From Omnitrophica WOR_2 bacterium RIFCSPHIGHO2_02_FULL_50_17 (lineage in GTDB: Bacteria > Omnitrophota > Gorgyraeia > Zapsychrales > Zapsychraceae), in the NCBI GenBank assembly GCA_001805645.1, contig MHGQ01000032.1, positions 64,267 through 128,266 of the forward strand: a stretch of DNA of 64,000 bases, written 5' to 3'. The notes under the pieces are model-generated. The model was given only the letters and a program-made list of their open reading frames with translations, was not told where the DNA came from and made no database searches. Made by a program: the position numbers and the translations under genes. The stretch's first letter is position 1; every line of letters starts with the position of its first letter. Positions 39,886 to 56,150 of this stretch are shown piece by piece.

Positions 39886-40123
39886 TTAGCTGAAGAAATT
39901 CTTCAGGTGTTGCACTAAGCACATGATCCCGGATGACCGATGAGGTCTTATTAAGCGTAAAATGTTTTTCAACAAACTGTGCCCCCCGGCTGACGGCCAG
40001 CAAACATGCCGCAATCCCGTGACAATGATCACTGTAGCCCCGGCAATATGGGGAGAAATAACCACTCTCCCTTGTTTGTGCAACGCGATCAAAGCTGACT
40101 TAAGCCGGTTTCCTGTCACTTCA
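39886..40123 (-). pseudogene. Duplicated 3'-end fragment of the 2-hydroxyacid dehydrogenase gene (second copy of a ~98-bp direct repeat)
   Basis: Fragment ORF encodes …[29 protein letters not shown]…, matching the C-terminus of 38276..39247 (…[29 protein letters not shown]…). Nucleotides 40026-40123 are ~95% identical to 38347-38444, and homology stops sharply at both ends. Confidence 0.7.
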
Positions 40124-41183
40124 AAGACTCTATTTTGTTTCTGAAATCAAGTTCCACCAAATCCGCCTTTTGACAGAGCTGTCCCCAGGTCAAATCATCA
40201 ACATAGATGCCTTCCTGCCGAGACTTCTCGGCATGCCGCTGTTCCGGTTCACCGGGAACAAGGATCTCGGAGATCCCTTTTGCTAACCTGGAAGACTTCA
40301 CATGCCGGCACAAGGAGTCCACCTTCTTTCGAAATTGAGTTAACGGTGTGAAAGCCTCGATGCGTAACGCCAAGAACCAGCAGGCATTCCCATGACGGGT
40401 GGCCTGGGCGTTGGAACATTGGGCGCCAGAAAGAGCGCCGCTCAAGGCATCAATGGCCAAGGATAAGGCAAATCCCTTATGCGCCGAAATCCCACCCAAA
40501 GGCAAGATGGCGCCGCGAGGGTCATGATAAAATTGTTTGGGATCCAGAGCTGAATTCCCCTCGGAATCAATGATCCAGCCTTCCGGGAGACTCTCCTTCT
40601 GATGCAATTTCATTTTCAAAGTTCCTTCCGCAACCATGCTGGTAGACATGTCCAAGAGAAACTCACCTTGCCCGTCCCTGGGAAAAGCGATGGAAATCGG
40701 ATTCGTCGGCAAGCGACGGTCGATGCCGCCAAAGGGTGCCACCACGTGGCTGGTCCCATGCAAATTGGCCATGCCCATCCCCACCATACCCTGTGCTACC
40801 GCTAAAGACGTATACGCACCCAAACGGCCGATGTGATTGCAATTCCGCACCGTTACGCAGGCTACGACTTGAGTCAGGGCTTTCTTCATAGCCAGCTCCA
40901 TGGCAAAACGCGCGATGGGCTGACCGAACCCCCAATGACCGTTGACAACTGCAGAAGAAGGAGTTTCCAACTCCACTGCAATGGACGCACCAGGAACTAT
41001 CTCGCCCTTTTGAATCTTCTCAATGTACCAGGGGGCCCGCAGAACCCCGTGCGAATCATGCCCCAGCAGATTCGACATCACCAAGTGGCTGCTGACTTCC
41101 TGCGCCTCCTGTTCAAACGCTCCATAATTTCTGAAAAGCTCAATAAGATTTTTTTCCAACGTATCCGGGGCTATCCGTATCAT
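40116..41183 (-). CDS. Ldh_2-family (malate/L-lactate/sulfolactate dehydrogenase-type) oxidoreductase
   Basis: LLGHDSHGVLRAPWY motif and overall Ldh_2-like composition; 355 aa. Confidence 0.7.
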   Translation of the reverse strand: MIRIAPDTLEKNLIELFRNYGAFEQEAQEVSSHLVMSNLLGHDSHGVLRAPWYIEKIQKGEIVPGASIAVELETPSSAVVNGHWGFGQPIARFAMELAMKKALTQVVACVTVRNCNHIGRLGAYTSLAVAQGMVGMGMANLHGTSHVVAPFGGIDRRLPTNPISIAFPRDGQGEFLLDMSTSMVAEGTLKMKLHQKESLPEGWIIDSEGNSALDPKQFYHDPRGAILPLGGISAHKGFALSLAIDALSGALSGAQCSNAQATRHGNACWFLALRIEAFTPLTQFRKKVDSLCRHVKSSRLAKGISEILVPGEPEQRHAEKSRQEGIYVDDLTWGQLCQKADLVELDFRNKIESLK

Positions 41184-42259
41184 ATGGCACCTTTCGTTCT
41201 GGGCCGCGCAATGACCAACAAACTGTCTGTCTGCCGCCGTTGGGCAAAGATCTTCCGGTAAATACGGTCAGGAAAATTCCAGACATCAATTGTCCCCTTG
41301 GAGGTTTGCACTTGGGGACGTTTCAAAAAAATCCAGCGCAAATGGTTGGACAGTCCATAAATTTGTACCGGGACAATCTGCCCATCCCAGCCGCACCGTT
41401 CCAAAGCCATCTGCAGCGTTTCCGGTGAGAAATAATTCAAATGCGGGAGTTGATAGAAAAAATCTTCATACCTTGAAGAATGATAAATGGTCAAAAGAGG
41501 ATCCCAAAGATTAGGCAAAAGCATTAACAGAATTCCTGAATCGGAAATCAACTCCCTTAACTTCTTTAAATCCGCTAAGGGATCATGTAAATGTTCCAAA
41601 ACAAACCACATACAGATGACATCAAAAGGATCCATCCCCCCTTGTCCAGACCCGCGTCGCCCGATCAGATTCTGGTGTCCCTCTGCAACCCCATGTCCAG
41701 CGCAAGCCCCAGCGCCGTGACGAGACACGGAAAGATTTCCAATAGGCTCCTGCAGAACCTCAATGCCCAGTTTTTGGCGGACATAAGCGGCAAATGTAGA
41801 ATCCAGCTCCAAGGCGGTACATTTCCTGACATGGGGCTGAACCAGGAATAAGAAGCTGCCCGAGCCACAACCTATTTCCAAAAGAGAAATCTTCTTGCTC
41901 AAATAAGGCTTAACAAGGGCAAAACGGTGCCTGGCCTGTCCCATTCTTGACCGGAAGGTATCTTCCGGATCATGTATCTGCAGTCCCAGTCTTTCCCGGG
42001 GGACATTCCGGTAGTCACCCTTCTGATAGAAATCAACGGTTTCCTGCTGGCCCATCCTTGGCCATAGAAAGACAAAACCACAGCCCTGACAGGACATAAC
42101 ATCGCGCAGAACCCCATAACGCAGACGATTACGAATCCGTTTCTGTTTGTCTCCCAGGCAAAGCGGACATACCGCTTTTTCTTCTTGAGAATTGTTCGCC
42201 GAGCTCTTCACATCAACGCTACTGTTCATCGGGAACCCCCAAGGATAAGCGCACTTCAT
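41180..42259 (-). CDS. Class I SAM-dependent methyltransferase with N-terminal Cys4 zinc-ribbon
   Basis: CPLC…CQGC pairs, motif I LLEIGCGSGSF, motif II-like FDVICMWFVLEHLHDP; an unusually Gly/Ala-rich 35-aa linker between them. Confidence 0.65.
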   Translation of the reverse strand: MKCAYPWGFPMNSSVDVKSSANNSQEEKAVCPLCLGDKQKRIRNRLRYGVLRDVMSCQGCGFVFLWPRMGQQETVDFYQKGDYRNVPRERLGLQIHDPEDTFRSRMGQARHRFALVKPYLSKKISLLEIGCGSGSFLFLVQPHVRKCTALELDSTFAAYVRQKLGIEVLQEPIGNLSVSRHGAGACAGHGVAEGHQNLIGRRGSGQGGMDPFDVICMWFVLEHLHDPLADLKKLRELISDSGILLMLLPNLWDPLLTIYHSSRYEDFFYQLPHLNYFSPETLQMALERCGWDGQIVPVQIYGLSNHLRWIFLKRPQVQTSKGTIDVWNFPDRIYRKIFAQRRQTDSLLVIARPRTKGAI

Positions 42260-43370
42260 CAGTCACCGAAGAACCAGGACTGTCGTCCCTCTGCGAAATG
42301 CCGACCCGGCGTTGGGTTTGATGGGAAATCTTCACCGCCTCTAAGACTTCCTGGATTCTGACCCCATCCCAAAACGTGGAGCCATCACGATAGGGGGTAT
42401 GGACAAAACGTTGCGATTGGATGCATTCAACTAAATGTTCGGCCAACCGAACCAAAGAAGTGCGCCATGGATTCAATCCTACAACCGGTTCTTTCCGCAA
42501 AGAATCAGGCTCAGAAAGATCATGCGAACAACCGTCCTTTACCAAAAACAATTTCTCAAACCCTCTTAGAACCAGAGAACCTTCAGAGCCCGTAATCCGC
42601 ATATCCAATGCAGGCTCATCCGGATCAACGCAGGAGGTCACGATCACCGCTGTCAGGCCGGAACAAAATTCCAAGTCCATAGAAACATACTCATCCGACG
42701 TGACTGCCCGCATCTTATGGGTGCTTGGATCCATCCTTTCTCTCGTGAACGTTGCCAAATGTCCCTGGACTGACCGAATCTCACCAAACCACCACCGCAA
42801 TAAATCAACAAAATGAGAACCTAATGCCAGCAGCTGTCCTCCACCAGCCTTCTCATCAGACCACCAGTCCCAAGGCAAGGATGGATCACAACGCACCGCG
42901 GTAAAATAAGCCAATTGCACATACCTCAGGTTTCCCACGATGCTGTTGCCCAACAGTTTCTTGATCTTTTGACAATTGGGATGAAAACGCATCTGGTGAT
43001 TGATCACCGCCATCGTGCCGGAACCCTGCGATAATTGAAATATCTGACGGGCTTCCTCCACATTCAAGGCCATGGGTTTTTCACACAGGATATGTTTCCC
43101 GGCCTGCAACGCTTGCCCAACCATCCGGCTGTGCAGAAAGGGAGGCACCTCGATACAGACCAAATCGATCTCCGGACAATTCAGCATCTGCTCCAGAGAG
43201 GAGAAAAGATATTTGACCTTGTACTGTTCAGCAATTTTCTTCATTTTCTCTGGAGTTCTGCTCGCCAATGCCAAGACATTCATCCCCTCAGCCACAGAAA
43301 AACAAGGAAGAGTCACCCTGCTCCCAAATCCGCTACCGATGATACCCACTTGTACAGGATGAGGTCTCAT
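42219..43370 (-). CDS. Gfo/Idh/MocA-family oxidoreductase
   Basis: VQVGIIGSGFGSR Rossmann motif, ILCEKPMAL; start MRPHP at 43370 forms ATGA overlap with upstream stop. Confidence 0.8.
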   Translation of the reverse strand: MRPHPVQVGIIGSGFGSRVTLPCFSVAEGMNVLALASRTPEKMKKIAEQYKVKYLFSSLEQMLNCPEIDLVCIEVPPFLHSRMVGQALQAGKHILCEKPMALNVEEARQIFQLSQGSGTMAVINHQMRFHPNCQKIKKLLGNSIVGNLRYVQLAYFTAVRCDPSLPWDWWSDEKAGGGQLLALGSHFVDLLRWWFGEIRSVQGHLATFTRERMDPSTHKMRAVTSDEYVSMDLEFCSGLTAVIVTSCVDPDEPALDMRITGSEGSLVLRGFEKLFLVKDGCSHDLSEPDSLRKEPVVGLNPWRTSLVRLAEHLVECIQSQRFVHTPYRDGSTFWDGVRIQEVLEAVKISHQTQRRVGISQRDDSPGSSVTDEVRLSLGVPDEQ

Positions 43371-44206
43371 CGCAATCGCCCCGTCTTTTCCAGAATCAGA
43401 AAATTCCTCGATATCTGCCTGTTGAGCACTTTTCCAGCCTCCTCCCATGTCATCACAGGACTAATGGTGTTCCGCGGGTATTTCTTCAATAAGATCTCAG
43501 CCACAGCCATATCAATCTCCGCATCAATATTAATTGACCTTTCCGCCGGCATAATATAAGGCCGACTGTCGGAGGTGCCGTAACGGGAGCCTCTCTTCAA
43601 GAGATCACGCTTCATAGCATAAATGGCCCCATTTCGGATGTAGGCGTCCGGCTTCAAGGCCTGACGGTGCGTCTCAGGAATTTCGGGCAAACAGAAATCG
43701 ACGATCTGATCATCCATAATTTTTTTGATGCGGATGGGATGATGATCTTCCAGCTTCGTCACGCCAATGACCGAATCCACCGCCGTCGTCATCAATTTTT
43801 CCAAGGCCGCGTCAATGTCTGCCGACGTTTTCATGGGGTTCGTGCAAAGCAACTCGACCACGTAATCATAAGGAACGCCTTCTTCCTCTTCCGCCCAAGC
43901 CAAGGCGTGCTGATCAGCGGCCAAGGCCGTGGCTGAATCCGTGGCCAGTTCGGCAGGCCGGACAAACGGTGCCTGCGCTCCATACTGAATGGCGGTCCTG
44001 CGGATTTCCTCGCTATCCGAAGAAACAATCAACCGGCTAATCCACCGACTCCTTAAAGCCTCGCAGATCGTATAAGCGATCAAAGGCTTCCCCAAGAGAG
44101 GACGAATATTTTTTTTAATCACGGATTTTGATCCTCCCCGCGCCAGGATGATCCCTAGGACACGCGGATTAGAGGAAGACCCAAACTTTTCTTGTTCGGC
44201 CAACAT
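43367..44206 (-). CDS. Acylneuraminate cytidylyltransferase (CMP-nonulosonic acid synthetase)
   Basis: LGIILARGGSKSVIKKN motif; ~65% identical by eye to the N-terminal domain of 48732..50516. Confidence 0.8.
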   Translation of the reverse strand: MLAEQEKFGSSSNPRVLGIILARGGSKSVIKKNIRPLLGKPLIAYTICEALRSRWISRLIVSSDSEEIRRTAIQYGAQAPFVRPAELATDSATALAADQHALAWAEEEEGVPYDYVVELLCTNPMKTSADIDAALEKLMTTAVDSVIGVTKLEDHHPIRIKKIMDDQIVDFCLPEIPETHRQALKPDAYIRNGAIYAMKRDLLKRGSRYGTSDSRPYIMPAERSINIDAEIDMAVAEILLKKYPRNTISPVMTWEEAGKVLNRQISRNFLILEKTGRLR

Positions 44207-44207
44207 C

Positions 44208-45254
44208 TCACCCCTCCAGCATATCAAGCGTCAATAAGGTATCCTCAGGGATATCCCATTTAGCCCTTTTGCCCAACACATCATTGATGCTGGAAACCGG
44301 CAGTCCGGTCCCGGGGTTTTTAAAATCCAGCATAGATTCCTCAATCCGGGAACCCCCTTTTATGATTCGGGCGGAAACGATCGAAACATGATATTTATTG
44401 CGGGTTACTTGTTCTCTTTCACTGACCCATTTCTCGCCGCTCCCCAGGATTTGCTCGACTTGGCGGATCTGGAGGGCCATCCCCTTCAATTCCGCCGGTT
44501 CCAGTGACAACTTGTGGTCGAATCCCACCATCGTTTTATCCAAAGTGACATGACGCTCCACTACCTTGGCCCCGCGCGCCACGGCCAGCAAAGTTGGCCA
44601 AGCGCCGATCTCATGGCCGGAATACCCCACCGTGACACCATATCGTTCTCGAAGTGTATCTATAATTTTTAAATTGGATTCTTCCGGGGCCTGAGGATAA
44701 GAAGACACGCAGTGCAATAAAACTAAAGGCGCTCCCCAGCTCTTTAATATGTCCACGGCCCGATCCAATTCTTTCAACACACACATGCCGGTGGAAAGAA
44801 TCACCGGCTTCGCGATCTTAGCCAGTTTCTTCAAAAGAGGCAGATTGGTCACACTGTGACTTGCCGTCTTGTAGCCGCAGACATCCAAGGTTTCCAGAAA
44901 ATCAACGGAAGGGATATCGAATGCCGTGCATAGGAAAATCATGCCCCGGGATCGGGCATGGTTAATAATCTGACGGTACTGCCGAGCATCAAACTCCAGA
45001 TGATTGCGGATGTCCCGATATGTCCTGCCGAATTCCGGGAAGCGTGGATCCGGCGCATCCAGAACGTCCTTGATGGCCAGCCCAGCAACATTCCTCTTTT
45101 GGAATTTCACGCAATCCACCCCCGCCTCCTGACAGGCGTCAATCAGGCGCTGGGCCAATTCCACACTCCCGTTGTGATTCAAGCCGATTTCACCAATGAT
45201 AAAGCACGGATGAGATTCTCCAATCCGTCTTTTTTCCAATAGAATATCCTGCAT
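44208..45254 (-). CDS. NeuB-family nonulosonic acid synthase (second copy) with SAF domain
   Basis: CFIIGEIGLNHNGSVELA…DCVKFQKR…GYSGHE motifs. Confidence 0.85.
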   Translation of the reverse strand: MQDILLEKRRIGESHPCFIIGEIGLNHNGSVELAQRLIDACQEAGVDCVKFQKRNVAGLAIKDVLDAPDPRFPEFGRTYRDIRNHLEFDARQYRQIINHARSRGMIFLCTAFDIPSVDFLETLDVCGYKTASHSVTNLPLLKKLAKIAKPVILSTGMCVLKELDRAVDILKSWGAPLVLLHCVSSYPQAPEESNLKIIDTLRERYGVTVGYSGHEIGAWPTLLAVARGAKVVERHVTLDKTMVGFDHKLSLEPAELKGMALQIRQVEQILGSGEKWVSEREQVTRNKYHVSIVSARIIKGGSRIEESMLDFKNPGTGLPVSSINDVLGKRAKWDIPEDTLLTLDMLEG

Positions 45255-45283
45255 AATATATTCTCCTGTCCATAAAAACGTTT

Positions 45284-46684
45284 TTATGGCAAAAACTGTT
45301 TCTTTTCACTCAGACTCAACTCTTTTTCCAGAAAAAATCGGGCGATTTCCTGGAAATAAGGATCGCTGACCTTGATCGTGTATTGTTGATTGGCGATATT
45401 CAAAAGCTCGACCTGATCACCCAGCAACATACCCTTGCGGATAAAACGGCTCGAGGTGATGCATCCTAATCCAATCAATCCCTCATAAACCGGATTCTTT
45501 TCGCTGCGCGGTTTCAGATTCTCACCGATCATTTGATAGCCGCGCTCTCCACAAAACCAAAAAAGCCGAAAATTTTTAAAGGCCGCGATTGTGCTATCCG
45601 ACCCCGTATACACATACTGCTCAATCAGAGCATTGAAGAACCCGTCAGGCCGGAAGGGGAACAAATAATTCACAAACAACACGGCATCCGTAATCGGATT
45701 CTGTTTTTCATATTCAGTCAGGGCAAAATTCAACGTGTTCTCCACACTCTTGCCCCGTGCCAGGAATTTTTCTTCCCGCTTTATGGCCTTAACGCCCTCT
45801 TTTTGAGCAAAGAGAAGAACACTATCGCGTTCACTGATCACGATAACATCCTTAATGTAGGAACACTGGCGCAACTGCTGGATCGTCCGTAACAACAGAT
45901 TCGTTCTGTCTACACACTTGATCTCTCCAATAAGGGGCACAAAAGCTATAATATTCAACTGTCCGGGTTTGAAACTGGCCGGGAGATCACCGCTGAAGTC
46001 CATATGGAGATTCTCCATAATCCTGACCGTCTGTTCGTACCGCTCTTTTTTATTGCTATGGTGGATCCCATGGTAATGGAACACCTCTGCTTCGGGCTCG
46101 TAAACAATCTGATACCCCTCATTGATGACTGTCTGGGCCCAAACACGATCTTCAATGTTCGTTACTTCTTCATCAAAAGGAAGTCTTTCCCACAATGCCC
46201 GTGGAATCATACTGTTGGCATTATGAAAGAATGTGTCCTTGTGCTGAATCCTTTTATCCAACCCAAAAGTGATCAGGAGGTCTCTCTTGTCGATACCCGA
46301 AGAATAGCGCAGGGGGATCTGCCGGCCATAAACCCCCGCAATGTTCCCTTCGTTGGCGGAAAAATTCCGTAACAAATTTTCCAGCCATTTTTCATGTTTA
46401 GGGATACAGTGCGCCGACAGACAGACCGCATATTCACCGTGGGACACCCGGATACCGTTGTTCAAAGCCTGCCCGGGATAATATTTCTCGATTTCCACTA
46501 TTTTAACTGGAAATGTCCTGGCCAGAGCCAGGGTATTATCCGTGCTTTTATTATCAACGACCACCACTTCGACATCCTGAACCGTCTGAGAAAAAACCAT
46601 GCGCAGGCAATGTACAATCCATTGCTCCTCGTTCCTCGTCCGGATGATCACGGACACCCTTGGAAATTTCTTGGGATAGTTCAT
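45284..46684 (-). CDS. GT2 glycosyltransferase fused to a C-terminal cytidylyltransferase-like (NTP-transferase) domain
   Basis: N-terminal RVSVIIRTRNEE…VVVVDNKSTDNT (GT2); C-terminal LNIIAFVPLIGEIKCVD… resembles the nucleotidyltransferase fold. Confidence 0.6.
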   Translation of the reverse strand: MNYPKKFPRVSVIIRTRNEEQWIVHCLRMVFSQTVQDVEVVVVDNKSTDNTLALARTFPVKIVEIEKYYPGQALNNGIRVSHGEYAVCLSAHCIPKHEKWLENLLRNFSANEGNIAGVYGRQIPLRYSSGIDKRDLLITFGLDKRIQHKDTFFHNANSMIPRALWERLPFDEEVTNIEDRVWAQTVINEGYQIVYEPEAEVFHYHGIHHSNKKERYEQTVRIMENLHMDFSGDLPASFKPGQLNIIAFVPLIGEIKCVDRTNLLLRTIQQLRQCSYIKDVIVISERDSVLLFAQKEGVKAIKREEKFLARGKSVENTLNFALTEYEKQNPITDAVLFVNYLFPFRPDGFFNALIEQYVYTGSDSTIAAFKNFRLFWFCGERGYQMIGENLKPRSEKNPVYEGLIGLGCITSSRFIRKGMLLGDQVELLNIANQQYTIKVSDPYFQEIARFFLEKELSLSEKKQFLP

Positions 46685-47682
46685 TTAACGACCCCTCCTT
46701 CAGCCCGGCACGGCAAGGCCCCGGACAACAAACATTCCGCTAACTGCATGCTCACCAGCGCCTCCCTCAAAGTAGCACCGGGAAAACCGATCTTCTTCTT
46801 GTCCAAGCAGGCATCTATAAACATCCTATTCTGAGCGAAAAGACCTGGCTTAAAATCCCGATCCTCCTGACTGATCGGCAGAGCTTGCTGGGTCCCATCA
46901 GAAAAAGTGACCCGGCCTTCTTCCATAGGTTCAATGTCAAGGCGCCATCCGTCCCCAAACAGTCTGACGGCCCAATTCCCAGGAGAATTCCAATTCGACA
47001 GATAATGACCAATCGCCCCCTGTTCAAATCGAATAAGGGCGTGCAGGCAATCCGGATGCAGCGGTTCCTTCCAAGTCTGCTGCATAACATGAAATTCCTT
47101 GATATGCCCTCCCAAAAAGGAGAGCATATCCAAACAATGAATGCCGTTGTTGAAGATCCATCGGCGCAAAACTTCCTGGGGGAACTTTTTCTTGGCCTTG
47201 ATTTCCTCAAACCGTTCAGGAGCCTCGACCACCAAAGACATCAACGGGGACCGCTGACGGATCATCCGGATACCCTCCATAACCGTACTGGAAAAACGTC
47301 TCTGCAGTCCCACCATATGGATCACGCCCTTGAATTCGGCGATCTGAAGAAGTTCTTCGGTTTCTTCCACGGATAAACCCGGCGGTTTTTCAATCAATGA
47401 GGGGATGCCTCTGACCAAACATGATCTCGCCACAGTAAAATTGTCCATGACACTCACACAGATAAAAACCGCATCCAAGGCCTCCTGATCCAGCATTTCT
47501 AAAAAGCTGGAATAGTTCCGCGGAATATTATACTTTCGGCAGACGGCATTCCTTCTTTCTTCGCTCCATTGATTGGCTAAGGCCACCACCTCCACATCAT
47601 TCATCTTGAGCAGGACATCAAGATGAAAACAGGCCATCCGCCCTGCCCCGATGATCCCCACACGGCATTTTGTCTTCATCAA
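46681..47682 (-). CDS. Gfo/Idh/MocA-family oxidoreductase
   Basis: CRVGIIGAGRMACFH Rossmann motif, 333 aa. Confidence 0.8.
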   Translation of the reverse strand: MMKTKCRVGIIGAGRMACFHLDVLLKMNDVEVVALANQWSEERRNAVCRKYNIPRNYSSFLEMLDQEALDAVFICVSVMDNFTVARSCLVRGIPSLIEKPPGLSVEETEELLQIAEFKGVIHMVGLQRRFSSTVMEGIRMIRQRSPLMSLVVEAPERFEEIKAKKKFPQEVLRRWIFNNGIHCLDMLSFLGGHIKEFHVMQQTWKEPLHPDCLHALIRFEQGAIGHYLSNWNSPGNWAVRLFGDGWRLDIEPMEEGRVTFSDGTQQALPISQEDRDFKPGLFAQNRMFIDACLDKKKIGFPGATLREALVSMQLAECLLSGALPCRAEGGVVK

Positions 47683-47710
47683 TTGCTTCTCCTTAAAGTG
47701 TTGCTGTTAC

Positions 47711-48745
47711 CTAAGTAAACTGGTATTCTGTCTGAAAAATTTCTTGATGCAACGGCAATTCAACCGGCTGATTACCATGGCCTTCCGATTGATGGATGGC
47801 AATGGAAACCATAAGACTCCGTAACCCGTCAACGCCACTACAGCTGACGGGTCCTGTGGAAAACAACTCCTCTATCGCCCTACGGCTGCAGTCAATCATA
47901 TCAATATCGCTTCCGGTAAAAGCAATAGGGATTAAAGGCGGCCGGCGCGTGAAAGGCTGGTCGCGGTCCTTGGGGTTGCGGGCAAAAATTTCCCACTTGC
48001 TGTATTTCTCATCAATAAGGACTCGACCAATAGACCCCATGATCTCAATAAAAGAGGGGACCCCGTAATCTTCGCACATATCAAAAAATATCCGGACGCC
48101 TCCTTCCAGCCAGACAAGGCCGTAGGCGCCCGGATCGCGGTACTGCGGGCCCCGGGGATTGGGAGTTCCTGTTCTATCGAGGTAACCCAAGACTCTCACC
48201 GGCTCTTTATCCGTCAGAAACCGCACCAAATCCCAGAAATGCCCGCCATTTGAGGCCAGTTGTCCTCCCGCCATCTCAAAGGTGATATGACGGATTTCCC
48301 CAATAACCCCATCTTCAAGCTGGGCCTTGAGCCGCGCATAGGCAGGAACCCACCGGCGCAGATGATTGATCGCCAAGCGAACACCTTTTCCCCTGCAAGT
48401 TTCTGTCATCCTTTGGGCATCTAATAGCGAGGTTGCCATCGGCTTCTCGCATAAAATTCTTGGGACACCGCACTCGGCCGCGGCCATCGTAATCATGGCA
48501 TGCGATGGGCCGTTGGATGCGATAATCAAAAGATCTAATTTTTCACTCTGGAGCAAATCTTTCCACTGAACATAACTTCGGCGCGGCGCGTACTGCTGGT
48601 TAACCTGATTAATCACCTCAGGCCTCAAATCACACACGGCCGTCAATTCCACATTTTTCAACGTTTTTAGGGCCTCACAGTGACGACGGCCCATGCCTCC
48701 CAATCCTATGACACCGACTTTTTTAAACTCTTCAAACATGCCCAT
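47711..48745 (-). CDS. Gfo/Idh/MocA-family oxidoreductase
   Basis: KKVGVIGLGGMGRRHCEAL Rossmann motif, ILCEKPMATS. Confidence 0.8.
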   Translation of the reverse strand: MGMFEEFKKVGVIGLGGMGRRHCEALKTLKNVELTAVCDLRPEVINQVNQQYAPRRSYVQWKDLLQSEKLDLLIIASNGPSHAMITMAAAECGVPRILCEKPMATSLLDAQRMTETCRGKGVRLAINHLRRWVPAYARLKAQLEDGVIGEIRHITFEMAGGQLASNGGHFWDLVRFLTDKEPVRVLGYLDRTGTPNPRGPQYRDPGAYGLVWLEGGVRIFFDMCEDYGVPSFIEIMGSIGRVLIDEKYSKWEIFARNPKDRDQPFTRRPPLIPIAFTGSDIDMIDCSRRAIEELFSTGPVSCSGVDGLRSLMVSIAIHQSEGHGNQPVELPLHQEIFQTEYQFT

Positions 48746-50516
48746 TCCTTCGCTCTTGTTCTTTATAAGCCTCCTGAGGAACAGTCATTCTCAACGGCTT
48801 GCCGGTAAGAAAATTCAACACTTCTTGGACAGCGCCCATTTCCATCGCCCTTTTACAGTCAACAGATGCGGCGGCCATGTGTGAGGTCAACAAACAATTA
48901 TCCAGTTGCGCCAGCGGCCCATCGTAGGGTTCTTTCTCAAAAACATCCAGGGCGGCGCCGGCGATTTTGCATGATTGCAGCGCTTCAAAAAGATCTTCTT
49001 CACAAATAATGCCTCCTCGCGAAGTATTAACAAGCAAAGCCTCCGGCTTCATCATGCCCAATTCCTTACAGGTTATAAAATATCTTGTTGCTTGCGTAAG
49101 TGGAAGATGCAGGGAAATAATATCGGATTCTCTCAATAACTTTTCCTTATCAACCCACTGAAAATTACGCTCATCTGCCGATATATCACTTTGCCTAAGA
49201 TCGAAGCCCAAAACCCTGGTGCCGAATCCTTGAAGATATTTAACAACTAACTTCCCTATGGAACCGACTCCCATCAATCCCACGGTACAATCTGCCAATC
49301 GTCGGCCAACCTGTCTTTTCCATACGCCCTTATGAAGATCCTGATTGGCTTGAGGGATATGCCGTAACAAAGCGAGCATGCATCCAACAACAAATTCCGC
49401 TACAGCCGGCGCGGGCGCGTGAGGCGTATAAGTCACTTGAATCCCCTTTTCTTTGGCCGCCAATAAATCAATATTGTCCAGCCCAATCCCTGCGCGAGCA
49501 ATCAACCGTAAATAAGGGGCTGCATCTATGACCTTCCTGGTGACAGGGCTTGTCCCTGCCAGCAAAATACCAAAATCTTTAATAAGCTCGATGGTTTCAT
49601 TTTCTGTAGGACGCCTGCCCAGCGGATTTATCGTATAATCCACTTTATTTTTCTTTAGTAATTCAATCGGGGAGTCATCGTAATCACCGAAGGGGACGGT
49701 GGTAATAAGGACCCTTTTCCCCTGTGATCTGGTGGGGATATAACCGGGCGCCTCTGTTTTTCCCAAATCAGCTTCTTGGCTGGCTAACCGTATATAATCC
49801 CGAGGGAACTTCTTCAACAAAATCTCCGCCATATAAAAATCGTTTATAGCGTCGATATTAACCGTTCGTTCCTCGGGCATGATATAGGGGCGGCTATTTT
49901 CTGAACCGATCCTCGTATGAATGCAATCCCTCCTACAGGCATATATGGACCCATTACGAATGTAGGCATCGGGCTTAAGCGCCTGCCGATGAGAACCTGG
50001 AATTTCTTTCAAGCAAAAATCGACAATCCGGTCATCAACAATTTTCTTGATGCGAACGGGATGGTGGTCCTGTAGTTTGGCCACTCCAATAACTGAATCT
50101 GCCCCAGTCTGGACCAATTTCTCAATGCACTGGTCAATGTCTTCGCTTGTCTTCATAGGATTGGTGCACAACATCTCAACGATGTAATCATAGCGTTTCC
50201 CCTCATTTTTTTCGGCCCATTCAACGGCATGCTCCAGGGCGTCGTTAGATGACGCCGTGTCCGTCGCCAGATGAGCCGGCCTCAGAAACGGAGCCTCGGC
50301 CCCGTATTGAATCGCTACCTTTTGGATTTCCAAGTCATCAGTAGAAACAATCAGTCGACTTAATTTTTTGCTTCGCAAGGCCTCACAAATCGTGTAAGCG
50401 ATCAAAGGATGCCCGTCAAGCAAACGGATGTTCTTTCCGGGAATCGCCTTTGATCCGCCACGGGCCAAAATTATCCCGATAATCCGTGGACTGAATTGTT
50501 CTTTGTTTGTTTTCAC
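48732..50516 (-). CDS. Fusion protein: acylneuraminate cytidylyltransferase (N) + D-3-phosphoglycerate/2-hydroxyacid dehydrogenase-like domain (C)
   Basis: N-terminus RIIGIILARGGSKAIPGKN (paralog of 43367..44206); C-terminal half GLMGVGSIGKLVVKYLQGFG…NTSRGGII…SHMAAAS typical of SerA/D-2-HADH. Confidence 0.75.
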   Translation of the reverse strand: MKTNKEQFSPRIIGIILARGGSKAIPGKNIRLLDGHPLIAYTICEALRSKKLSRLIVSTDDLEIQKVAIQYGAEAPFLRPAHLATDTASSNDALEHAVEWAEKNEGKRYDYIVEMLCTNPMKTSEDIDQCIEKLVQTGADSVIGVAKLQDHHPVRIKKIVDDRIVDFCLKEIPGSHRQALKPDAYIRNGSIYACRRDCIHTRIGSENSRPYIMPEERTVNIDAINDFYMAEILLKKFPRDYIRLASQEADLGKTEAPGYIPTRSQGKRVLITTVPFGDYDDSPIELLKKNKVDYTINPLGRRPTENETIELIKDFGILLAGTSPVTRKVIDAAPYLRLIARAGIGLDNIDLLAAKEKGIQVTYTPHAPAPAVAEFVVGCMLALLRHIPQANQDLHKGVWKRQVGRRLADCTVGLMGVGSIGKLVVKYLQGFGTRVLGFDLRQSDISADERNFQWVDKEKLLRESDIISLHLPLTQATRYFITCKELGMMKPEALLVNTSRGGIICEEDLFEALQSCKIAGAALDVFEKEPYDGPLAQLDNCLLTSHMAAASVDCKRAMEMGAVQEVLNFLTGKPLRMTVPQEAYKEQERRNGHV

Positions 50517-50525
50517 TTCAAAATA

Positions 50526-52496
50526 TTATTTTGACACGTTTAATGATTGCCGGATTCTTTGCATGGGGGAAACGTCCAGATTACCCCCATATTCCGGGAA
50601 AATATATTTTTCCAAATAAGCCATAAAATCCCGCTCTGGCAAACTTAACCAGTAATTCATCGTGTCCTTTAATTCCAGCCCATTATGCGCAACAATCCTG
50701 GGAAACTTTTCAAAAAAAGAATTACGATAGGCGTTGCTTGCGTCATAATAAAAAGCGCGCTTCCCGGCCACCAGGGCTTCCACCGTCGGGCTCGCAAAGG
50801 CCATGGAAACCACAAGATGAGCATAGGACACGATAGCATTAGATGAAAAACGAGGGTTTAGAACAATCGCCCTCGGGTGTTTTTTCAAATTTTCATAAAC
50901 CTCGGCAATATCCGTACCTTCCAACCCCATATACTCTTCGTAATTCAAATTCTTGTGTTTTAGAAGAATTCTTAAATCTGGGTAGTGCGGATCGTTGAGC
51001 ATATTAACAAAAGCCTGAAGAAAATCCCGATGCGTTTTCTCCCCGTTGATTGCCTGCAAACTGTTTGTCGTTGTAAAAACGGCCAAGATAATCCCTGCAG
51101 GATTACTGCCCCACCGGTCCAAGATAATCTTATCCATCAATGCCGTTTTTTTGATTTCACGGTACCAAATCGGACCGTAAGCCTCAAAAAAGCGGGACCG
51201 ATTATGGTGTTTCTGAGCCAGCTGAATCAATTGCCGCCCCCAATGGATTTCCCCATCGAATTTCATATAATCCCTTAAAGCCTCACGGCCGGAAAGCTTG
51301 CCATTATTTTCATACATCTGGATTTTGCTGTTACTGTGGTCAAAATACCAGCTCTGGCAGCCGATTGTTCCAAGAAGGATATTACGGAAAATATGCCGAT
51401 ACTGAATATCATGGCAGGCGAAATAGGCCATTGGAAAGTAATGACAGATAAAATTCTGCCACATGAAATAATCCATCCATGCATGAACCACCACTTTCAT
51501 CAAATTTATCGGTGTTGACAGAGATTGCAGAAAAAGCGCGCCTAACCTTTTGAAATTCTGAAGAATTAATATCCTGAGAATAAAATCCACAGAAACTTCC
51601 CTAAACGCAGCCTTATAATACTGCCGGGAAAGCGTATATTTCCGATGACTGATCTCGTTTTCGTAATCCTTGTTCAACTGATTTTCAGCAACAAAAAGCG
51701 TATTGCCAGGATGGAATCTTTCTCCATCCAGAAGCCAATCGGCCTCATGAGTGGCTTGCCCGCGCAAGCCCCAATCATTGTTATATAACCGTATCGCCAG
51801 CTGCATCGATTTGGGGGCACTTTTATGGAAGTTTATTTTCCGTATACGCGATAAAATCCAGGGGACTGTCCCGAGGAGCCCCGCTAAAAATAAAAATTTC
51901 TTCCCAATTTTCTCGAGTTGGCCCGAAAAGGACACCCCAAAACTATCATTCACCTTTTCCGGCAACGTTGTCTTGACGCCGGCCAGACGCATATATTGAT
52001 CCATCTGTTGCCATTGGGAGGAAATTGACAATTGGATCGGCCGCCCCAGACTTTGTAAACTTTGGGCGGCATTAACGACCCTGAAATAATCCGCCAGCCA
52101 CAGAACCAATTGTTTTTTAAATGCCATACAAACATCGGGATCACCGTACAAAGATTCCAGTGGCTTTAACGGAATACGCTCATTTTCCAGCAACCAAGAA
52201 TAAACCTTCTCAACGTTCTCTATGGCCTGGTCTTCCGCCGTGTATCTTTGACAAAAAGAAAAAATATGCCATGTGAATCTCCGGATATTATCGGCGCCTG
52301 CCAATCGGCGAAACCAAAAACTCTTTATTCCGGCAGGAGGAATGTTTATGACGACAATCAATGTCCCCGCCGCGTATATATGGCTCCGCAAGCGCAAATA
52401 ATCCACAAAAGAGGCCAGTTCATCCACCAAAACAATCCTCTGGTAACCGGATTCCATATCTTTTGTTGATAGAATTCTAAAAGACTCGTTTTGCAT
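50526..52496 (-). CDS. Uncharacterised 656-aa protein with GT-B-like C-terminus (…SPTVEALVAGKRAFYYD); candidate (nonulosonic-acid) glycosyl/phospho-sugar transferase
   Basis: No canonical motif; C-terminal pattern and size resemble 11794..13764 and the capsule-synthesis/TagF-like GT-B group; tentative. Confidence 0.35.
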   Translation of the reverse strand: MQNESFRILSTKDMESGYQRIVLVDELASFVDYLRLRSHIYAAGTLIVVINIPPAGIKSFWFRRLAGADNIRRFTWHIFSFCQRYTAEDQAIENVEKVYSWLLENERIPLKPLESLYGDPDVCMAFKKQLVLWLADYFRVVNAAQSLQSLGRPIQLSISSQWQQMDQYMRLAGVKTTLPEKVNDSFGVSFSGQLEKIGKKFLFLAGLLGTVPWILSRIRKINFHKSAPKSMQLAIRLYNNDWGLRGQATHEADWLLDGERFHPGNTLFVAENQLNKDYENEISHRKYTLSRQYYKAAFREVSVDFILRILILQNFKRLGALFLQSLSTPINLMKVVVHAWMDYFMWQNFICHYFPMAYFACHDIQYRHIFRNILLGTIGCQSWYFDHSNSKIQMYENNGKLSGREALRDYMKFDGEIHWGRQLIQLAQKHHNRSRFFEAYGPIWYREIKKTALMDKIILDRWGSNPAGIILAVFTTTNSLQAINGEKTHRDFLQAFVNMLNDPHYPDLRILLKHKNLNYEEYMGLEGTDIAEVYENLKKHPRAIVLNPRFSSNAIVSYAHLVVSMAFASPTVEALVAGKRAFYYDASNAYRNSFFEKFPRIVAHNGLELKDTMNYWLSLPERDFMAYLEKYIFPEYGGNLDVSPMQRIRQSLNVSK

Positions 52497-55009: not shown

Positions 55010-55014
55010 ATATT

Positions 55015-55722: not shown

Positions 55723-55736
55723 GTTTTCCCCACGAT

Positions 55737-56150
55737 TTATAAAATTCCTACTTGAACCTTTGCTTTCGCGCAAACATATCCCCGCATAAGGTTCATGATA
55801 TTTATCTTAAGCACAAACACCTTAACCGCCTCGCTAACCTGATCGACCCTTGCTTCTATTCTCAGGTAATCCCCCACATAATTGGGTTTTACAAAATCGA
55901 TCTCAAGAGAATGAATAACGACATTCTTGTACGGCAACTCCATGCCGATAAAATTTGAAAGAAAACCCCCTAAAACCGCTCCGTGAACCACTTTCGCATG
56001 GAATCCCTTGGAAACCGCATATTTGTCATCCACATGCAAGGGATTCCGGTCACCGAACAGCTCGCTAAAAATCTCATGGATTTCATCGGTTATCCGATAT
56101 TCTTTAGATATCGTCTGTCCCTGCCGAATTTTCGGGGATTCCACATTCAT
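55737..56150 (-). CDS. MaoC-like (R)-specific hydratase/dehydratase, hot-dog fold
   Basis: FGDRNPLHVDDKYA…HGAVLGG hot-dog/MaoC signature; 137 aa. Confidence 0.75.
   Translation of the reverse strand: MNVESPKIRQGQTISKEYRITDEIHEIFSELFGDRNPLHVDDKYAVSKGFHAKVVHGAVLGGFLSNFIGMELPYKNVVIHSLEIDFVKPNYVGDYLRIEARVDQVSEAVKVFVLKINIMNLMRGYVCAKAKVQVGIL

Follow-up and report, generated by a model that had tools for sequence, protein, structure and literature searches.

A fused cytidylyltransferase and D-2-hydroxyacid dehydrogenase, tentatively assigned to acidic-sugar biosynthesis, in an Omnitrophica WOR_2 bacterium

Results

A genuine two-domain protein

The window, the whole 64,000-nucleotide stretch of DNA analysed here, comes from the uncultivated Omnitrophica WOR_2 bacterium RIFCSPHIGHO2_02_FULL_50_17 and carries a gene island for surface sugars; all genes considered in it lie on the minus strand. 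Positions 48732-50516 form a single unbroken open reading frame of 594 residues with a GTG start, which matches PF02348 (CTP_transf_3, residues 13-152) and TIGR03584 (PseF, residues 13-235) in its N-terminal half and PF00389/PF02826 (2-Hacid_dh, residues 280-578) in its C-terminal half; the DNA at the domain junction contains neither a stop codon nor a frame change. The GenBank product (OGX38735.1) has only 335 residues, starts at an ATC codon corresponding to Ile260 of the longer frame, and comprises the dehydrogenase half alone. Independent ENA assemblies, however, encode a 578-residue two-domain product identical to the fusion at 577 of 578 positions, and 63 two-domain proteins of 540-624 residues from other lineages are among the best 120 database matches. 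The unbroken frame, the ENA products, and at least 63 homologues with the same architecture rule out an assembly artefact of two adjacent genes; thus, the in-frame fusion proposed in the sequence-only reading is genuine, and the GenBank coding sequence is merely shortened. Both halves are modelled with confidence by AF2 (pLDDT 86.4) and are joined by a linker at approximately residues 246-265 (49722..49781; pLDDT <50 at residues 250-255) that differs in length and sequence between homologues.

The N-terminal half (residues 1-245; 49782..50516) belongs to a group of CTP_transf_3 domains that we call clade I (PF02348, E = 2e-22). It scored 143.9 bits against the PseF model (cutoff 205.7) and ~49 bits against KdsB models. 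Its matches in the PDB were NeuA structures (6ifd, 1e-33; 9ftb, 1e-26; 1eyr, 6e-21) and CMAS (1qwj, 3e-19), whereas KdsB/KpsU structures matched at 1.8e-6 or worse, placing the cytidylyltransferase domains on the NeuA/PseF side rather than with KdsB. The motifs ARGGSK..KN, RP..LATDTASS, RQ..P.AYIRNGSIY, and NID are present, and model confidence is mostly >85. Judged by these motifs, this half is a NeuA-type CMP-ulosonic-acid synthetase domain in which all nucleotide-, Mg-, and carboxylate-binding elements are kept.

The C-terminal half (residues 266-594; 48732..49721; PF02826, 1e-53; PF00389, 7e-24) is a predicted NAD-type D-2-hydroxyacid dehydrogenase of a clade designated AGT(E/S). Among PDB structures it matches most closely 1wwk, a phosphoglycerate dehydrogenase of type IIIH (7.5e-62; Foldseek TMt 0.90), and R500/E529/H546, the GxGxxG motif, and the NAD determinant D439 are invariant in 31 homologues, features that point to a catalytically intact enzyme of type-IIIH SerA descent. 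Although type-IIIH SerA is its closest relative, the invariant Arg-Ser of SerA, which anchors the 3-phosphate of the substrate (PMC6303947), is replaced by Gly321-Thr322, and the score against the SerA model TIGR01327 was 238 bits compared to a cutoff of 454. We therefore rejected phosphoglycerate dehydrogenase as its activity, and the earlier label of a SerA-like or D-3-phosphoglycerate dehydrogenase is misleading.

Two synthases and five cytidylyltransferase-like domains

The expected duplication of the nonulosonic-acid toolkit was found: NeuB is present twice, and four to five domains resemble cytidylyltransferases. Both synthases have PF03102 and SAF domains, and they are 35% identical to each other. 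NeuB1 (27751..28791; NeuB_NnaB, 383.8 bits) serves a separate Neu/Leg-type module as its synthase; this module also contains NeuC (394.9 bits, above cutoff), a WbuX amidotransferase (351 bits), HisFH, a formyltransferase, a deacetylase, a CTP_transf_3 gene detected by domain search (20522-21280), and an LIC12162 transferase (432.9 bits). NeuB2 (44208..45254; PF03102, 5e-76) represents a distinct clade; it scored 314.6 bits against NeuB_NnaB (cutoff 399.65) and 232.8 bits against PseI, and is 51% identical to the NeuB of locus L091 and 59% identical to the NeuB half of P0265, a NeuB2–CTP_transf_3 fusion that ties NeuB2 to clade-I cytidylyltransferases.

The start of a stand-alone clade-I gene (43367..44206, or to 44227; PseF, 132.7 bits) abuts or overlaps the end of NeuB2. 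As proposed from sequence alone, its product is a close paralogue of the fused N-terminal half (63% identity over 259 residues, E = 3e-116), and it is 60-61% identical to the cytidylyltransferase halves of P0265 and of the group-C fusions described below. A clade-II CTP_transf_3 gene (17974..18726), of the type fused to AGT(E/S)-clade dehydrogenases in group-B proteins, scored 291 bits against CTP253 of locus L003, 129-159 bits against group-B N-terminal halves, and 73 bits against the fused N-terminal half. It is the first gene of a cassette that runs to position 1225 and holds an FkbM methyltransferase, an rSAM-SPASM protein, a HisC-like aminotransferase, an SDR (13772-14668), a TIGR04326-like protein (11794-13764), and a HAD phosphatase (3993-4661, from domain search); in look-alikes of this cassette in other genomes, a solo AGTE dehydrogenase is present. 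The fifth, degenerate domain lacks a P-loop and is fused to a GT2 glycosyltransferase (45284..46684; PF00535, 9e-24). This C-terminal region alone had no significant Pfam match, but its family profile aligned with NeuA-like domains (hhalign probability 99.3%, E = 1.3e-20, 202 columns). The family has >2500 members, and PF12804 or PF02348 is among the precomputed matches of about one-third of 120 listed members; the window protein is 47% identical to the GT2X gene product of cassette L091. With the four canonical domains, this brings the total in the window to five.

Genes around the fusion

Immediately upstream of the fusion, across a 9-bp gap, lies a gene for a PFTS-motif polysaccharide biosynthesis protein (50526..52496; TIGR04417, 111.9 bits, cutoff 100), a candidate transferase for the activated product. 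PFTS genes adjoin the dehydrogenase or fusion in L001, L005, L014, and L047 and lie three genes upstream in L088, and the window protein has a weak profile link (33%) to TagF-like TIGR04326 proteins. Three GFO/Idh/MocA oxidoreductases are encoded nearby: one overlaps the 3' end of the fusion by 14 bp (47711..48745; PF01408, 4e-23), and the others lie at 46681..47682 (1e-20) and 42219..43448 (3e-27). A class-I SAM methyltransferase (41180..42259; PF13489, 5e-20) has relatives that recur in loci of the dehydrogenase clade, being the best label for ORFs in L003, L005, L014, L021, L026, and L053.

The separate D-2-hydroxyacid dehydrogenase, Ldh_2, HAD, and FkbH genes listed in the sequence-only reading are all present. 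The Ldh_2-family protein (40116..41183; PF02615, 4e-102), of the malate/L-lactate/sulfolactate/ureidoglycolate type, scores under every NCBIfam equivalog cutoff. The second D-2-hydroxyacid dehydrogenase (38276..39247; PF02826, 3e-43) belongs to an 'STxxNH' clade, shares its motif and insertions with the C-terminal halves of the group-C fusions, and is the best window match for them (112-192 bits). FkbH (56409-58193, from domain search) is part of an FkbH-ACP-MBOAT-DltD-like set that resembles a system of its own for Dlt-type O-acylation. Neither a uronic-acid-forming enzyme nor an HpcH aldolase was found in the window.

Recurrent fusions and conserved neighbourhoods

Related fusions fall into groups joining clade-I CTP_transf_3 to AGT dehydrogenases (A), clade-II CTP_transf_3 to AGT dehydrogenases (B), and clade-I CTP_transf_3 to STxxNH dehydrogenases (C; P0069, P0103, P0076, P0283). 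Domain order is reversed in P0257, and in P0327 the partner is a LarA-like racemase. By sequence, CTP_transf_3 has thus been fused repeatedly to α-hydroxy-acid enzymes, comprising at least three 2-hydroxyacid dehydrogenase clades, in both orders, plus the racemase; the tree used is a simple neighbour-joining tree without support values. In the literature searched, we found no description of a CTP_transf_3–2-hydroxyacid dehydrogenase architecture, in agreement with the earlier impression of novelty, but the architecture is not rare (dozens of metagenomic proteins, several origins), and a functional precedent exists for joining CTP_transf_3 to an NAD(P) oxidoreductase. EpaA, which combines a CTP_transf_3 domain with an aldo-keto reductase, acts with EpaB to 8-epimerise pseudaminic acid (PMC12053666). 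In this one published analogue, the tailored nonulosonic acid is activated by a cytidylyltransferase that is itself joined to a reductase, the same logic as we propose here.

We compared gene content within 10 kb of AGT(E/S) dehydrogenases (26 loci) and of other homologues (22 loci), in a sample drawn by pattern-based scans and hence not unbiased. CTP_transf_3 genes were present in 21 of 26 compared to 1 of 22 loci, GalE-like SDRs in 21 compared to 4, NeuB or HpcH aldolases in 13 compared to 1, and TagF-like transferases in 13 compared to 1. The AGT(E/S) clade is thus almost confined to glycan loci that contain CTP_transf_3 genes. Compact arrangements include CTP-HpcH-DH-SDR-HAD runs (L033, L036), an HpcH-DH-SDR-HAD run on a 4.4-kb contig (L037), and an ABC2-GT2X-NeuB-MT-[CTP–DH] cassette with only one CTP_transf_3 domain. 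Approximately half of the CTP-containing loci (10 of 21, including all group-B loci read) have neither NeuB nor HpcH within 10 kb, suggesting that the pathway may differ between groups.

Discussion

We tentatively propose, with somewhat less than even confidence, that the fusion is a bifunctional enzyme acting in an acidic-sugar pathway not characterised so far, combining a CMP-ulosonic-acid synthetase with a tailoring or precursor dehydrogenase. Comparative genomics suggests that clade-I cytidylyltransferases, including the fused half and its 43367 paralogue, activate a 2-keto-acid sugar made by NeuB2-type synthases, and that an α-hydroxy-carboxylate enzyme (an AGT, STxxNH, or other 2-hydroxyacid dehydrogenase, or a LarA-like racemase) is a recurring part of the pathway; the Ldh_2 protein of the window may be another. 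The dehydrogenase half would act with NAD(H) on an α-hydroxy-acid centre, not 3-phosphorylated, of the sugar acid or its immediate C3-C6 acid precursor, fixing the oxidation state or the configuration of that centre; the N-terminal half would next join the finished ulosonic acid to CMP, and a neighbouring PFTS/TagF-like or GT2-X transferase would place it onto a glycan. A 2-hydroxyacid dehydrogenase requires a free carboxylate beside the reacting carbon, which classical nonulosonic acids offer only at C1/C2, and these positions must remain a keto acid for CMP activation. The substrate must therefore be sought among precursors, aldonic acids, and dicarboxylic sugars of an unknown kind. It might be glycerate/hydroxypyruvate supplied to the synthase, an aldonic acid that is oxidised to an ulosonic acid, or a dicarboxylic ulosaric acid acted on at its distal end.

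A rival account, which we regard as unlikely, is that the dehydrogenase oxidises the C2 position of an aldonic acid, derived for example from 6-phosphogluconate or a GFO-oxidised sugar, and so forms a 2-ulosonic acid that the N-terminal half activates directly, yielding a CMP-keto-acid sugar independently of NeuB. The dehydrogenase would then yield the very type of substrate that defines CTP_transf_3 enzymes, which would explain fusing consecutive steps; Asp439 fits the oxidative direction, and Arg-to-Gly in the β3-α3 loop gives space for a longer chain. A HAD phosphatase often follows the dehydrogenase, three GFO oxidoreductases stand beside the fusion, and the four canonical CTP_transf_3 domains of the window outnumber its two NeuB proteins. 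The 10 of 21 loci without NeuB or HpcH also favour this route, although a distant NeuB could escape 10-kb flanks, and the compact single-CTP_transf_3 cassettes (L091, L033, L036) do carry NeuB or HpcH, which would make the dehydrogenase there a redundant keto-acid former. Moreover, the LarA-like racemase fused to the same cytidylyltransferase clade cannot form a keto acid, and glycans with CMP-derived hex-2-ulosonic acids were not found in the literature searched. Supply of a building block, an account that we consider slightly less likely still, would instead have HAD and the dehydrogenase convert 3-phosphoglycerate via D-glycerate into hydroxypyruvate or its tautomer tartronate semialdehyde, which NeuB2 (with PEP) or, elsewhere, HpcH aldolases (with pyruvate) would extend to a 3-hydroxy-ulosonic or ulosaric acid for activation by the N-terminal half. 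From a SerA ancestor, a glycerate dehydrogenase is reached most simply by losing the phosphate anchor alone, the HAD protein resembles phosphoglycolate phosphatase, and HpcH lies directly upstream of the dehydrogenase in many loci, with nearest solved relatives that include a hydroxy-ketoacid aldolase and 2-keto-3-deoxy-sugar-acid aldolases. The five-gene CTP-HpcH-DH-SDR-HAD modules require no sugar-nucleotide genes, and in L093 NeuB adjoins a gene of the AP_endonuc_2 family, to which hydroxypyruvate isomerase belongs. This account is wholly inferential, however; the window lacks HpcH and its HAD gene lies at a distance of 45 kb, such small aldehydo-acids are not known as NeuB substrates, and a racemase fusion fits poorly.

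The earlier suggestion of a glycerate- or lactate-type C3 unit attached to the sugar survives as one reading, in which the dehydrogenase makes D-lactate or D-glycerate for attachment as an N-/O-acyl or ether group before CMP activation. 2-Hydroxyacid dehydrogenases (LdhD) and LarA are alternative D-lactate suppliers, and both enzyme types occur fused to clade-I domains. Several methyltransferases and the FkbH-ACP module are adjacent, and nonulosonic acids bearing glyceroyl or di-O-methylglyceroyl groups are known (SugarBase preprint). We nevertheless judge it distinctly unlikely: none of the compact cassettes pairs the fusion with a ligase, a CoA-transferase, an ATP-grasp enzyme, or any other acyl-activating enzyme, the dehydrogenase is closer to SerA than to LdhD or GhrB, and the FkbH-ACP-MBOAT-DltD-like set appears to be a self-contained extracytoplasmic acylation system missing from the other fusion loci read except the syntenic L001/L002. 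Quite improbable is a teichoic-acid-like logic paralleling Bcs1/TarIJ (reductase plus cytidylyltransferase) and CpgD, in which a hydroxy acid is linked to CDP or CMP, for example as CDP-glycerate, and TagF-like PFTS/TIGR04326 proteins transfer the phospho-hydroxyacid. CDP-glycerate is a real metabolite, the product of CpgD (PMC12275187), but CpgD belongs to COG1213 (LicC-like) rather than CTP_transf_3. TIGR04326 as a family shows homology to TagF-like Glyphos_transf (98.8%, E = 5e-17), and a TIGR04326 gene follows the fusion in L007. In every characterised CTP_transf_3 enzyme known to us, however, a keto-acid sugar attacks CTP through its C2 hydroxyl; the fused half keeps the NeuA sugar-carboxylate motif RQ..NGSIY, and a phospho-hydroxyacid would require the phosphate anchor that is missing from the dehydrogenase. 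In vertebrates, the C-terminal domain of CMP-sialic acid synthetase is an inactive phosphatase serving tetramerisation, which provides a precedent for a dehydrogenase half that is only a non-catalytic oligomerisation platform, and the dehydrogenase-only GenBank annotation could hint at an assembly or annotation error. Both ideas are very improbable and already largely refuted by the matching two-domain gene in independent assemblies, >60 homologues of several independent origins, and the invariance of the catalytic Arg/Glu/His, GxGxxG, and NAD-binding Asp. Returning to the bifunctional enzyme that we favour, the fusion points to an uncharacterised step in the building of acidic surface sugars by many environmental bacteria.

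Results

A cytidylyltransferase and a dehydrogenase in one reading frame

The minus-strand ORF at 48732–50516 encodes 594 aa, of which the first part is a CTP_transf_3 domain (PF02348, with the PseF model matching residues 13–235) and residues 280–578 matched PF00389 and PF02826, and the DNA across the domain junction is continuous. The ENA assemblies contain a two-domain product of 578 aa that is identical to the fusion at 577 of 578 positions. The GenBank product, OGX38735.1, has 335 aa, begins with an ATC codon at the position of Ile260 in the full-length frame, and leaves out the cytidylyltransferase half entirely; this start marks the shorter form as an annotation truncation rather than a difference in sequence. 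Looking up the 335-aa product by exact match yielded no contig. The continuous junction, the ENA product, and the GenBank start together rule out an assembly artefact. Two-domain proteins made up 63 of the best 120 matches to the fusion in a collection of 5.8 billion proteins, and ~20 two-domain clusters were present among the top 150 entries of a 50%-identity representative library. The uninterrupted frame, the ENA twin, and these matches bear out the in-frame fusion proposed by the sequence-only reading, which had also taken the architecture to be undescribed: literature searches returned no report of a CTP_transf_3 domain fused to a 2-hydroxyacid dehydrogenase (2HADH), nor of the conserved dehydrogenase/SDR/HAD/aldolase/CTP_transf_3/TagF-like gene set, and found nothing relevant on HpcH/cytidylyltransferase clusters or hydroxypyruvate-derived ulosonic acids.

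In the AlphaFold model of the fusion, both halves were predicted confidently (mean pLDDT 86.4), with linker residues 250–255 disordered. A PDB fold search gave matches for the dehydrogenase half only and no solved two-domain structure. A promoter and terminator scan found no enrichment of such sites in the 38–57 kb region, nor any internal signal where the two domains meet.

The N-terminal half resembles NeuA-type synthetases

The fused N-half scored 80.5 bits against PF02348 (gathering cutoff 22.6) and matched NeuA/CMAS entries in the PDB with E-values from 1e-33 to 3e-19, compared to 1.8e-6 or worse for KpsU/KdsB; its PseF score was 143.9 bits, versus 39–49 bits for KdsB models. The domain therefore sides with NeuA/PseF, as first read, and KdsB membership is ruled out by these scores. 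KdsB-like enzymes do occur in other loci of the dehydrogenase clade (L005 CTP249, 299 bits). Both the fusion and its stand-alone paralogue at 43367–44206 (132.7 bits) fell below the TIGR03584 PseF equivalog cutoff of 205.7 bits. In a residue-by-residue alignment to 6ifd, 9ftb, and 1eyr, the P-loop Arg/Lys, the cytosine motif RP..D..S, the sugar-carboxylate motif RQ..NGxIY (RQ..NGSIY in the fused domain), and the Mg-binding Asp were all present, and every one of them was conserved across the group-A homologues defined below. From these alignments, the fused N-half is predicted to be a NeuA-type CMP-ulosonic-acid synthetase domain.

The C-terminal half has lost the phosphate anchor of SerA enzymes

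PF00389 and PF02826 matches, a GxGxxG motif, and an Arg-Glu-His triad place the C-half in the D-isomer-specific 2HADH superfamily. The motif glycines (G416/G418/G421), R500, E529, H546, and the NAD-determining Asp439 were invariant in 31 homologues, and Foldseek gave TMt values of 0.83–0.91 with many 2HADHs. The best match was the type-IIIH D-3-phosphoglycerate dehydrogenase (PGDH) 1wwk of P. horikoshii (E 7.5e-62, TMt 0.90), which has the catalytic triad, the NAD-binding Asp, the β4-α4 Arg, and the WxR Arg in common with the C-half but differs in the β3-α3 loop, where its 'VRS' is aligned opposite 'AGT' and the Arg-Ser corresponds to Gly321-Thr322. This Arg-Ser is SERA-invariant and binds phosphate directly (2HADH classification, PMC6303947). 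G321 was invariant in the 31 homologues, and an 'AGTE' motif occurred in 100 of the best 120 matches. Against the PGDH equivalog TIGR01327, the C-half scored 237.6 bits, about half of the 454-bit cutoff; a Pfam scan found no ACT/ASB regulatory domains in the fusion, and the neighbors in 21 of 26 clade loci were glycan genes rather than serC/serB. Because the phosphate-binding Arg-Ser is gone and the TIGR01327 score is so low, the PGDH name does not fit, and the SerA-like/D-3-phosphoglycerate dehydrogenase identity given in the sequence-only reading is misleading. The C-half is instead predicted to be a D-2-hydroxyacid dehydrogenase with intact catalytic residues. Databases name the homologues 'hypothetical' or, widely, 'D-3-phosphoglycerate dehydrogenase', despite the absent Arg-Ser.

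Gene neighborhoods of the dehydrogenase clade

We searched for relatives of the dehydrogenase in a single genome of each species (80 loci), scored the β3-α3 motif, labeled neighboring ORFs by similarity to Pfam-annotated references, and counted partners within a 10-kb radius. CTP_transf_3 genes lay within this radius at 21/26 loci of the clade with an AGT(E/S) motif, compared to 1/22 for other dehydrogenase homologues; GalE-like extended SDR genes did so at 21/26 compared to 4/22, NeuB or HpcH/HpaI aldolase genes at 13/26 compared to 1/22, and genes for large TagF-like transferases likewise at 13/26 compared to 1/22. The AGT(E/S) proteins form a clade residing in glycan loci. The SDR gene was mostly directly downstream of the dehydrogenase, with UDP-hexose and UDP-uronate 4-epimerases as best PDB matches, and a phosphoglycolate-phosphatase-like HAD gene was frequent as well. 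Compact CTP_transf_3-HpcH-dehydrogenase-SDR-HAD modules were found in Sulfurimonas and Desulfobacteraceae, and an HpcH-dehydrogenase-SDR-HAD module on an Arcobacter contig. The number of cytidylyltransferases per locus matched the number of keto-acid-forming enzymes too inconsistently to serve as evidence.

Recurrent fusions

Alignment and all-against-all comparison distinguished several kinds of fusion. Group A (the window fusion and P0001–P0008) joins a clade-I domain, the canonical NeuA-like type of CTP_transf_3, to an AGT-clade dehydrogenase. Group B, from Anaerolineales, Chloroflexi, and Victivallales, joins the same dehydrogenase clade to a divergent clade-II domain related to the stand-alone gene at 17974 in the window and to CTP253 of locus L003. 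In group C (P0069, P0103, P0076, and P0283), a clade-I domain is fused to a 2HADH of another clade, whose member in the window is the stand-alone gene 38276–39247; an 'STxxNH' motif and insertions are common to both. P0257 has the reversed order, dehydrogenase then cytidylyltransferase; P0327 pairs clade I with a 2-hydroxyacid racemase domain of LarA-like type; and P0265 joins a NeuB2-type synthase (59% identity to NeuB2 at 44208–45254) to a clade-I domain (60% to 43367–44206). A neighbor-joining tree of the dehydrogenase halves, constructed without support values, set groups A and B apart with solo enzymes between them. In locus L093 (JGI 3300045502), a gene at 10001–12007 encoding a clade-I cytidylyltransferase fused to a LarA-like (Lar_N) racemase domain directly follows NeuB, with two genes for UDP-sugar 6-dehydrogenases and one for a xylose-isomerase-like TIM barrel nearby. 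AGT-type dehydrogenases joined directly to rSAM-SPASM domains were also observed (P0284 and P0296).

The P0265 fusion and the abutting or overlapping start and stop of NeuB2 and 43367–44206 suggest that NeuB2-type synthases make the product which clade-I domains activate. Loci L091 and L092 carry a cassette of ABC2, GT2X, NeuB, MT, and a fused cytidylyltransferase-dehydrogenase that includes orthologues of the window's GT2X at 45284–46684 (47%), NeuB2 (51%), and 43367–44206 (61%). Together with the group-C-type dehydrogenase at 38276, these orthologies indicate that a split (NeuB2-43367 ... 38276) and a fused (48732–50516) version of one kind of partnership both occur in the window.

The glycan-biosynthesis island

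Pfam and NCBIfam scans of ~55 ORFs marked the window as one very large glycan-biosynthesis island, in which all substantial ORFs are closely packed on the minus strand; exact GenBank protein matches (OGX38711/12/16/35) place the window on a 128-kb contig of Omnitrophica WOR_2 bacterium RIFCSPHIGHO2_02_FULL_50_17. The stand-alone cytidylyltransferase at 43367–44206 is 63% identical to the fused N-half. PF03102 and SAF domains identified two synthases, NeuB2 (44208–45254, 255.8 bits) and NeuB1 (27751–28791, 265.5 bits), which are 35% identical to each other. Scores against TIGR03569 (cutoff 399.65) and TIGR03586 (cutoff 340.25) were 314.6 and 232.8 for NeuB2 and 383.8 and 254.2 for NeuB1, all below cutoff, and on these scores both are closer to NeuB/LegI-type than to PseI synthases. 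The same scans found further minus-strand CTP_transf_3 genes at 20522 and 17974. The C-half of GT2X had no Pfam match alone, but its family profile aligned to NeuA-like domains with 99.3% probability and its P-loop is deleted; this degenerate domain may serve CMP-sugar binding rather than synthesis. The GT2X family, a GT2 joined to a degenerate CTP_transf_3-like domain, has >2500 full-length members, mostly annotated 'rhamnosyltransferase'. Much of the first inventory of the island thus stood, including the close paralogy of the two cytidylyltransferase copies, the pair of NeuB-family synthases, and the Ldh_2, second 2HADH, HAD, and FkbH genes, and its 'three to five' cytidylyltransferase-like domains became four canonical and one degenerate.

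Directly upstream of the fusion lies the polysaccharide biosynthesis protein PFTS (50526–52496), preceded by a minus-strand run of FkbH (56409–58193), a 100-aa carrier protein with a DSL motif (56155–56457), a MaoC-like dehydratase (55737–56150), an SDR (55015–55773), an MBOAT (53600–55009), and a weakly DltD-like protein (52504–53628; PF04914 E 0.007, under the Pfam cutoff). This run at 52504–58193, whose gene order is conserved in locus L001, appears to resemble a Dlt-type system with an FkbH glyceryl-ACP loader in place of the DltA loader. Such an arrangement suggests that a polymer is O-acylated outside the cytoplasm with an acyl group derived from glycerate.

PFTS (TIGR04417), the LIC12162 protein (TIGR04331; 28806–30620), and a TIGR04326-like protein (11794–13764) belong to three large Leptospira-type 'O-antigen' families. 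By hhalign, TIGR04326 was clearly homologous to a TagF-type Glyphos_transf protein (98.8%), and the links were weak for LIC12162 (60%) and PFTS (33%, restricted to 70 C-terminal columns of TIGR04326). A search for PFTS homologues returned only the query itself.

A separate module at 20522–30620 contains NeuB1, NeuC, a WbuX amidotransferase, a HisF-HisH fusion, a formyltransferase, a polysaccharide deacetylase, its own cytidylyltransferase, and the LIC12162 transferase, a set typical of an acetimidoyl- or formyl-substituted Neu/Leg-type nonulosonic acid. Inside the NeuB2 module are an APS kinase (39253–39819) and a 361-aa ORF (37175–38260) without a family match; no recognizable sulfotransferase was found near the kinase. 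Sulfotransfer_1 genes are paired with the dehydrogenase in L003, L017, L027, and L089, which hints at sulfated sugars. A GFO/Idh/MocA gene (36099–36968) lacks the N-terminal Rossmann domain and aligns to only residues 86–345 of its 374-aa L001 orthologue, and is thus probably a truncated remnant. Two B12-binding radical-SAM enzymes and a radical-SAM/SPASM enzyme are encoded at 2205–3770, 5530–6954, and 15781–16962; the B12-binding pair weakly matched P-/C-methyltransferase families, and these genes may be linked to ulosonic acids with C-methylation or chain extension, which mass spectrometry has recently detected. An IS110-family transposase (6911–7939) lies in the left-hand cassette between epimerase-GT2 and B12-radical-SAM genes, and its insertion may have split an operon that elsewhere includes a solo AGTE dehydrogenase.

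Discussion

NeuA forms with extra C-terminal domains are familiar, namely an esterase in E. coli K1 and GBS and a HAD-like domain in vertebrates. The fused N-half aligns end to end with NeuA of V. cholerae (6ifd), N. meningitidis (1eyr), and mouse (1qwj) and keeps their motifs, but it has a dehydrogenase at its C-terminus where those forms have an esterase or phosphatase, and it falls under the PseF equivalog cutoff. In the CDP-ribitol synthases Bcs1 and TarI-TarJ, a cytidylyltransferase is joined to a substrate-preparing dehydrogenase/reductase and the product passes to TagF-like transferases; unlike the fusion, these enzymes have an IspD-like cytidylyltransferase, a reductase of another family, an alditol phosphate substrate, and a CDP-diester product. 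A single analogue has been published, the prophage-borne EpaA of A. baumannii, with an N-terminal CTP_transf_3 domain of ~200–240 aa followed in one polypeptide by an NAD(P)-dependent oxidoreductase of ~300 aa, a proposed dual reductase and cytidylyltransferase role, and a place in a nonulosonic-acid pathway, where together with the SDR EpaB it converts Pse5Ac7Ac to the 8-epimer, 8-epi-Pse (PMC12053666). The second domain of EpaA, however, is an aldo-keto reductase whereas that of the fusion is a 2HADH, and EpaA acts at C8 of a classical 5,7-diamino nonulosonic acid, beyond the reach of a carboxylate-dependent 2HADH. The resemblance is one of architecture and function, not of second-domain homology. 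With bifunctional NeuA-type enzymes and EpaA already known, the pairing of CTP_transf_3 with 2HADH would be the new part.

Repeated fusion of clade-I and clade-II domains to enzymes that share only action on alpha-hydroxy-carboxylates argues for this chemistry as an integral part of the pathway. Alongside the observed domain identities, intact catalytic residues, phosphate-anchor loss, recurrence, and gene context, the best explanation of the fusion is a bifunctional enzyme. In the order of steps that we infer, the dehydrogenase half would act at an alpha-hydroxy-acid center to prepare or tailor either the acid sugar itself or the precursor directly before it, the N-half would activate the resulting product with CTP, and the adjacent PFTS or GT2X transferase would use the CMP-activated product.

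Several sub-hypotheses concern the chemistry itself. Conversion of an aldonic acid to a 2-ulosonic acid and then to CMP-ulosonate would account for the fusion of consecutive steps and for loci without NeuB or aldolase (10/21), but is redundant in compact cassettes having NeuB or HpcH and leaves no place for a racemase partner. A route in which 3-PG is converted through glycerate to hydroxypyruvate or tartronate semialdehyde, for HpcH or NeuB to use as a building block, would explain the adjacency of HAD and HpcH as well as the SerA ancestry, although HpcH is absent from the window. A dicarboxylic ulosaric acid that is oxidized or epimerized at its distal alpha-hydroxy-acid end suits 2HADH, LarA-like, and Ldh_2 enzymes equally, and also the pair of UDP-sugar dehydrogenases next to the LarA fusion, yet no such sugars are known. 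Supply of a D-hydroxy-acyl side chain goes back to the sequence-only reading, which proposed a C3 hydroxy-acid (glycerate/lactate-type) chemistry attached to the sugar; glyceroyl-nonulosonic acids exist, but an activating enzyme does not co-occur. Formation of a CDP-hydroxyacid for TagF-like phosphotransfer has a precedent in Caulobacter CpgD, a CTP:phosphoglycerate cytidylyltransferase that provides cytidine activation of a C3 hydroxy acid for an envelope glycolipid (PMC12275187). CpgD, however, is COG1213/LicC-like, carries no dehydrogenase domain, and acts on a phosphorylated substrate, whereas the fusion is of the wrong enzyme family and its phosphate anchor is missing; CpgD-like synthesis of CDP-glycerate was rejected on this difference in family. 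A phosphonate pathway, with a PGDH-like phosphonopyruvate reductase and a cytidylyltransferase, was rejected because no PEP mutase was found among the window ORFs.

We regard as unlikely the broader reading that a cassette of NeuB2-type synthase, clade-I cytidylyltransferase, and alpha-hydroxy-acid enzyme (D-2HADHs of several clades, the LarA-like racemase, and possibly Ldh_2) makes an undescribed class of CMP-activated acidic sugar, installed by the putatively TagF-like PFTS, TIGR04326, and LIC12162 proteins. Such a sugar could be a dicarboxylic 'ulosaric' acid oxidized or epimerized at its distal alpha-hydroxy-carboxylate end before activation, or else a ulosonic acid. The latter would be formed either by oxidizing an aldonic acid at C2 or from C3 acids of glycolysis (3-PG to glycerate to hydroxypyruvate), bypassing the classical UDP-/GDP-HexNAc route. 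If this broader reading is true, a widespread pathway would be shared by Omnitrophota, Chloroflexota, Desulfobacterota, Campylobacterota, SAR11, and further lineages.

Nonulosonic acids and related keto-acid sugars have a shaping role in bacterial surfaces, recognition by phages, and evasion of immunity, and almost all known pathways come from pathogens. Taken with its relatives, the fusion marks a gene set, conserved across several phyla, of non-PGDH SerA-like dehydrogenase, GalE-like SDR, HAD phosphatase, NeuB/HpcH aldolase, CTP_transf_3, and TagF-like transferases, the dehydrogenase of which is systematically mis-annotated as 'D-3-phosphoglycerate dehydrogenase'. As a tractable soluble target, the fusion could lead to the definition of a new CMP-sugar and to thousands of corrected annotations. 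The repeated, independent fusions of cytidylyltransferases to alpha-hydroxy-acid enzymes are a strong 'Rosetta-stone' signal, which argues that alpha-hydroxy-acid redox or epimerization would be an integral and so far undescribed step of these pathways.
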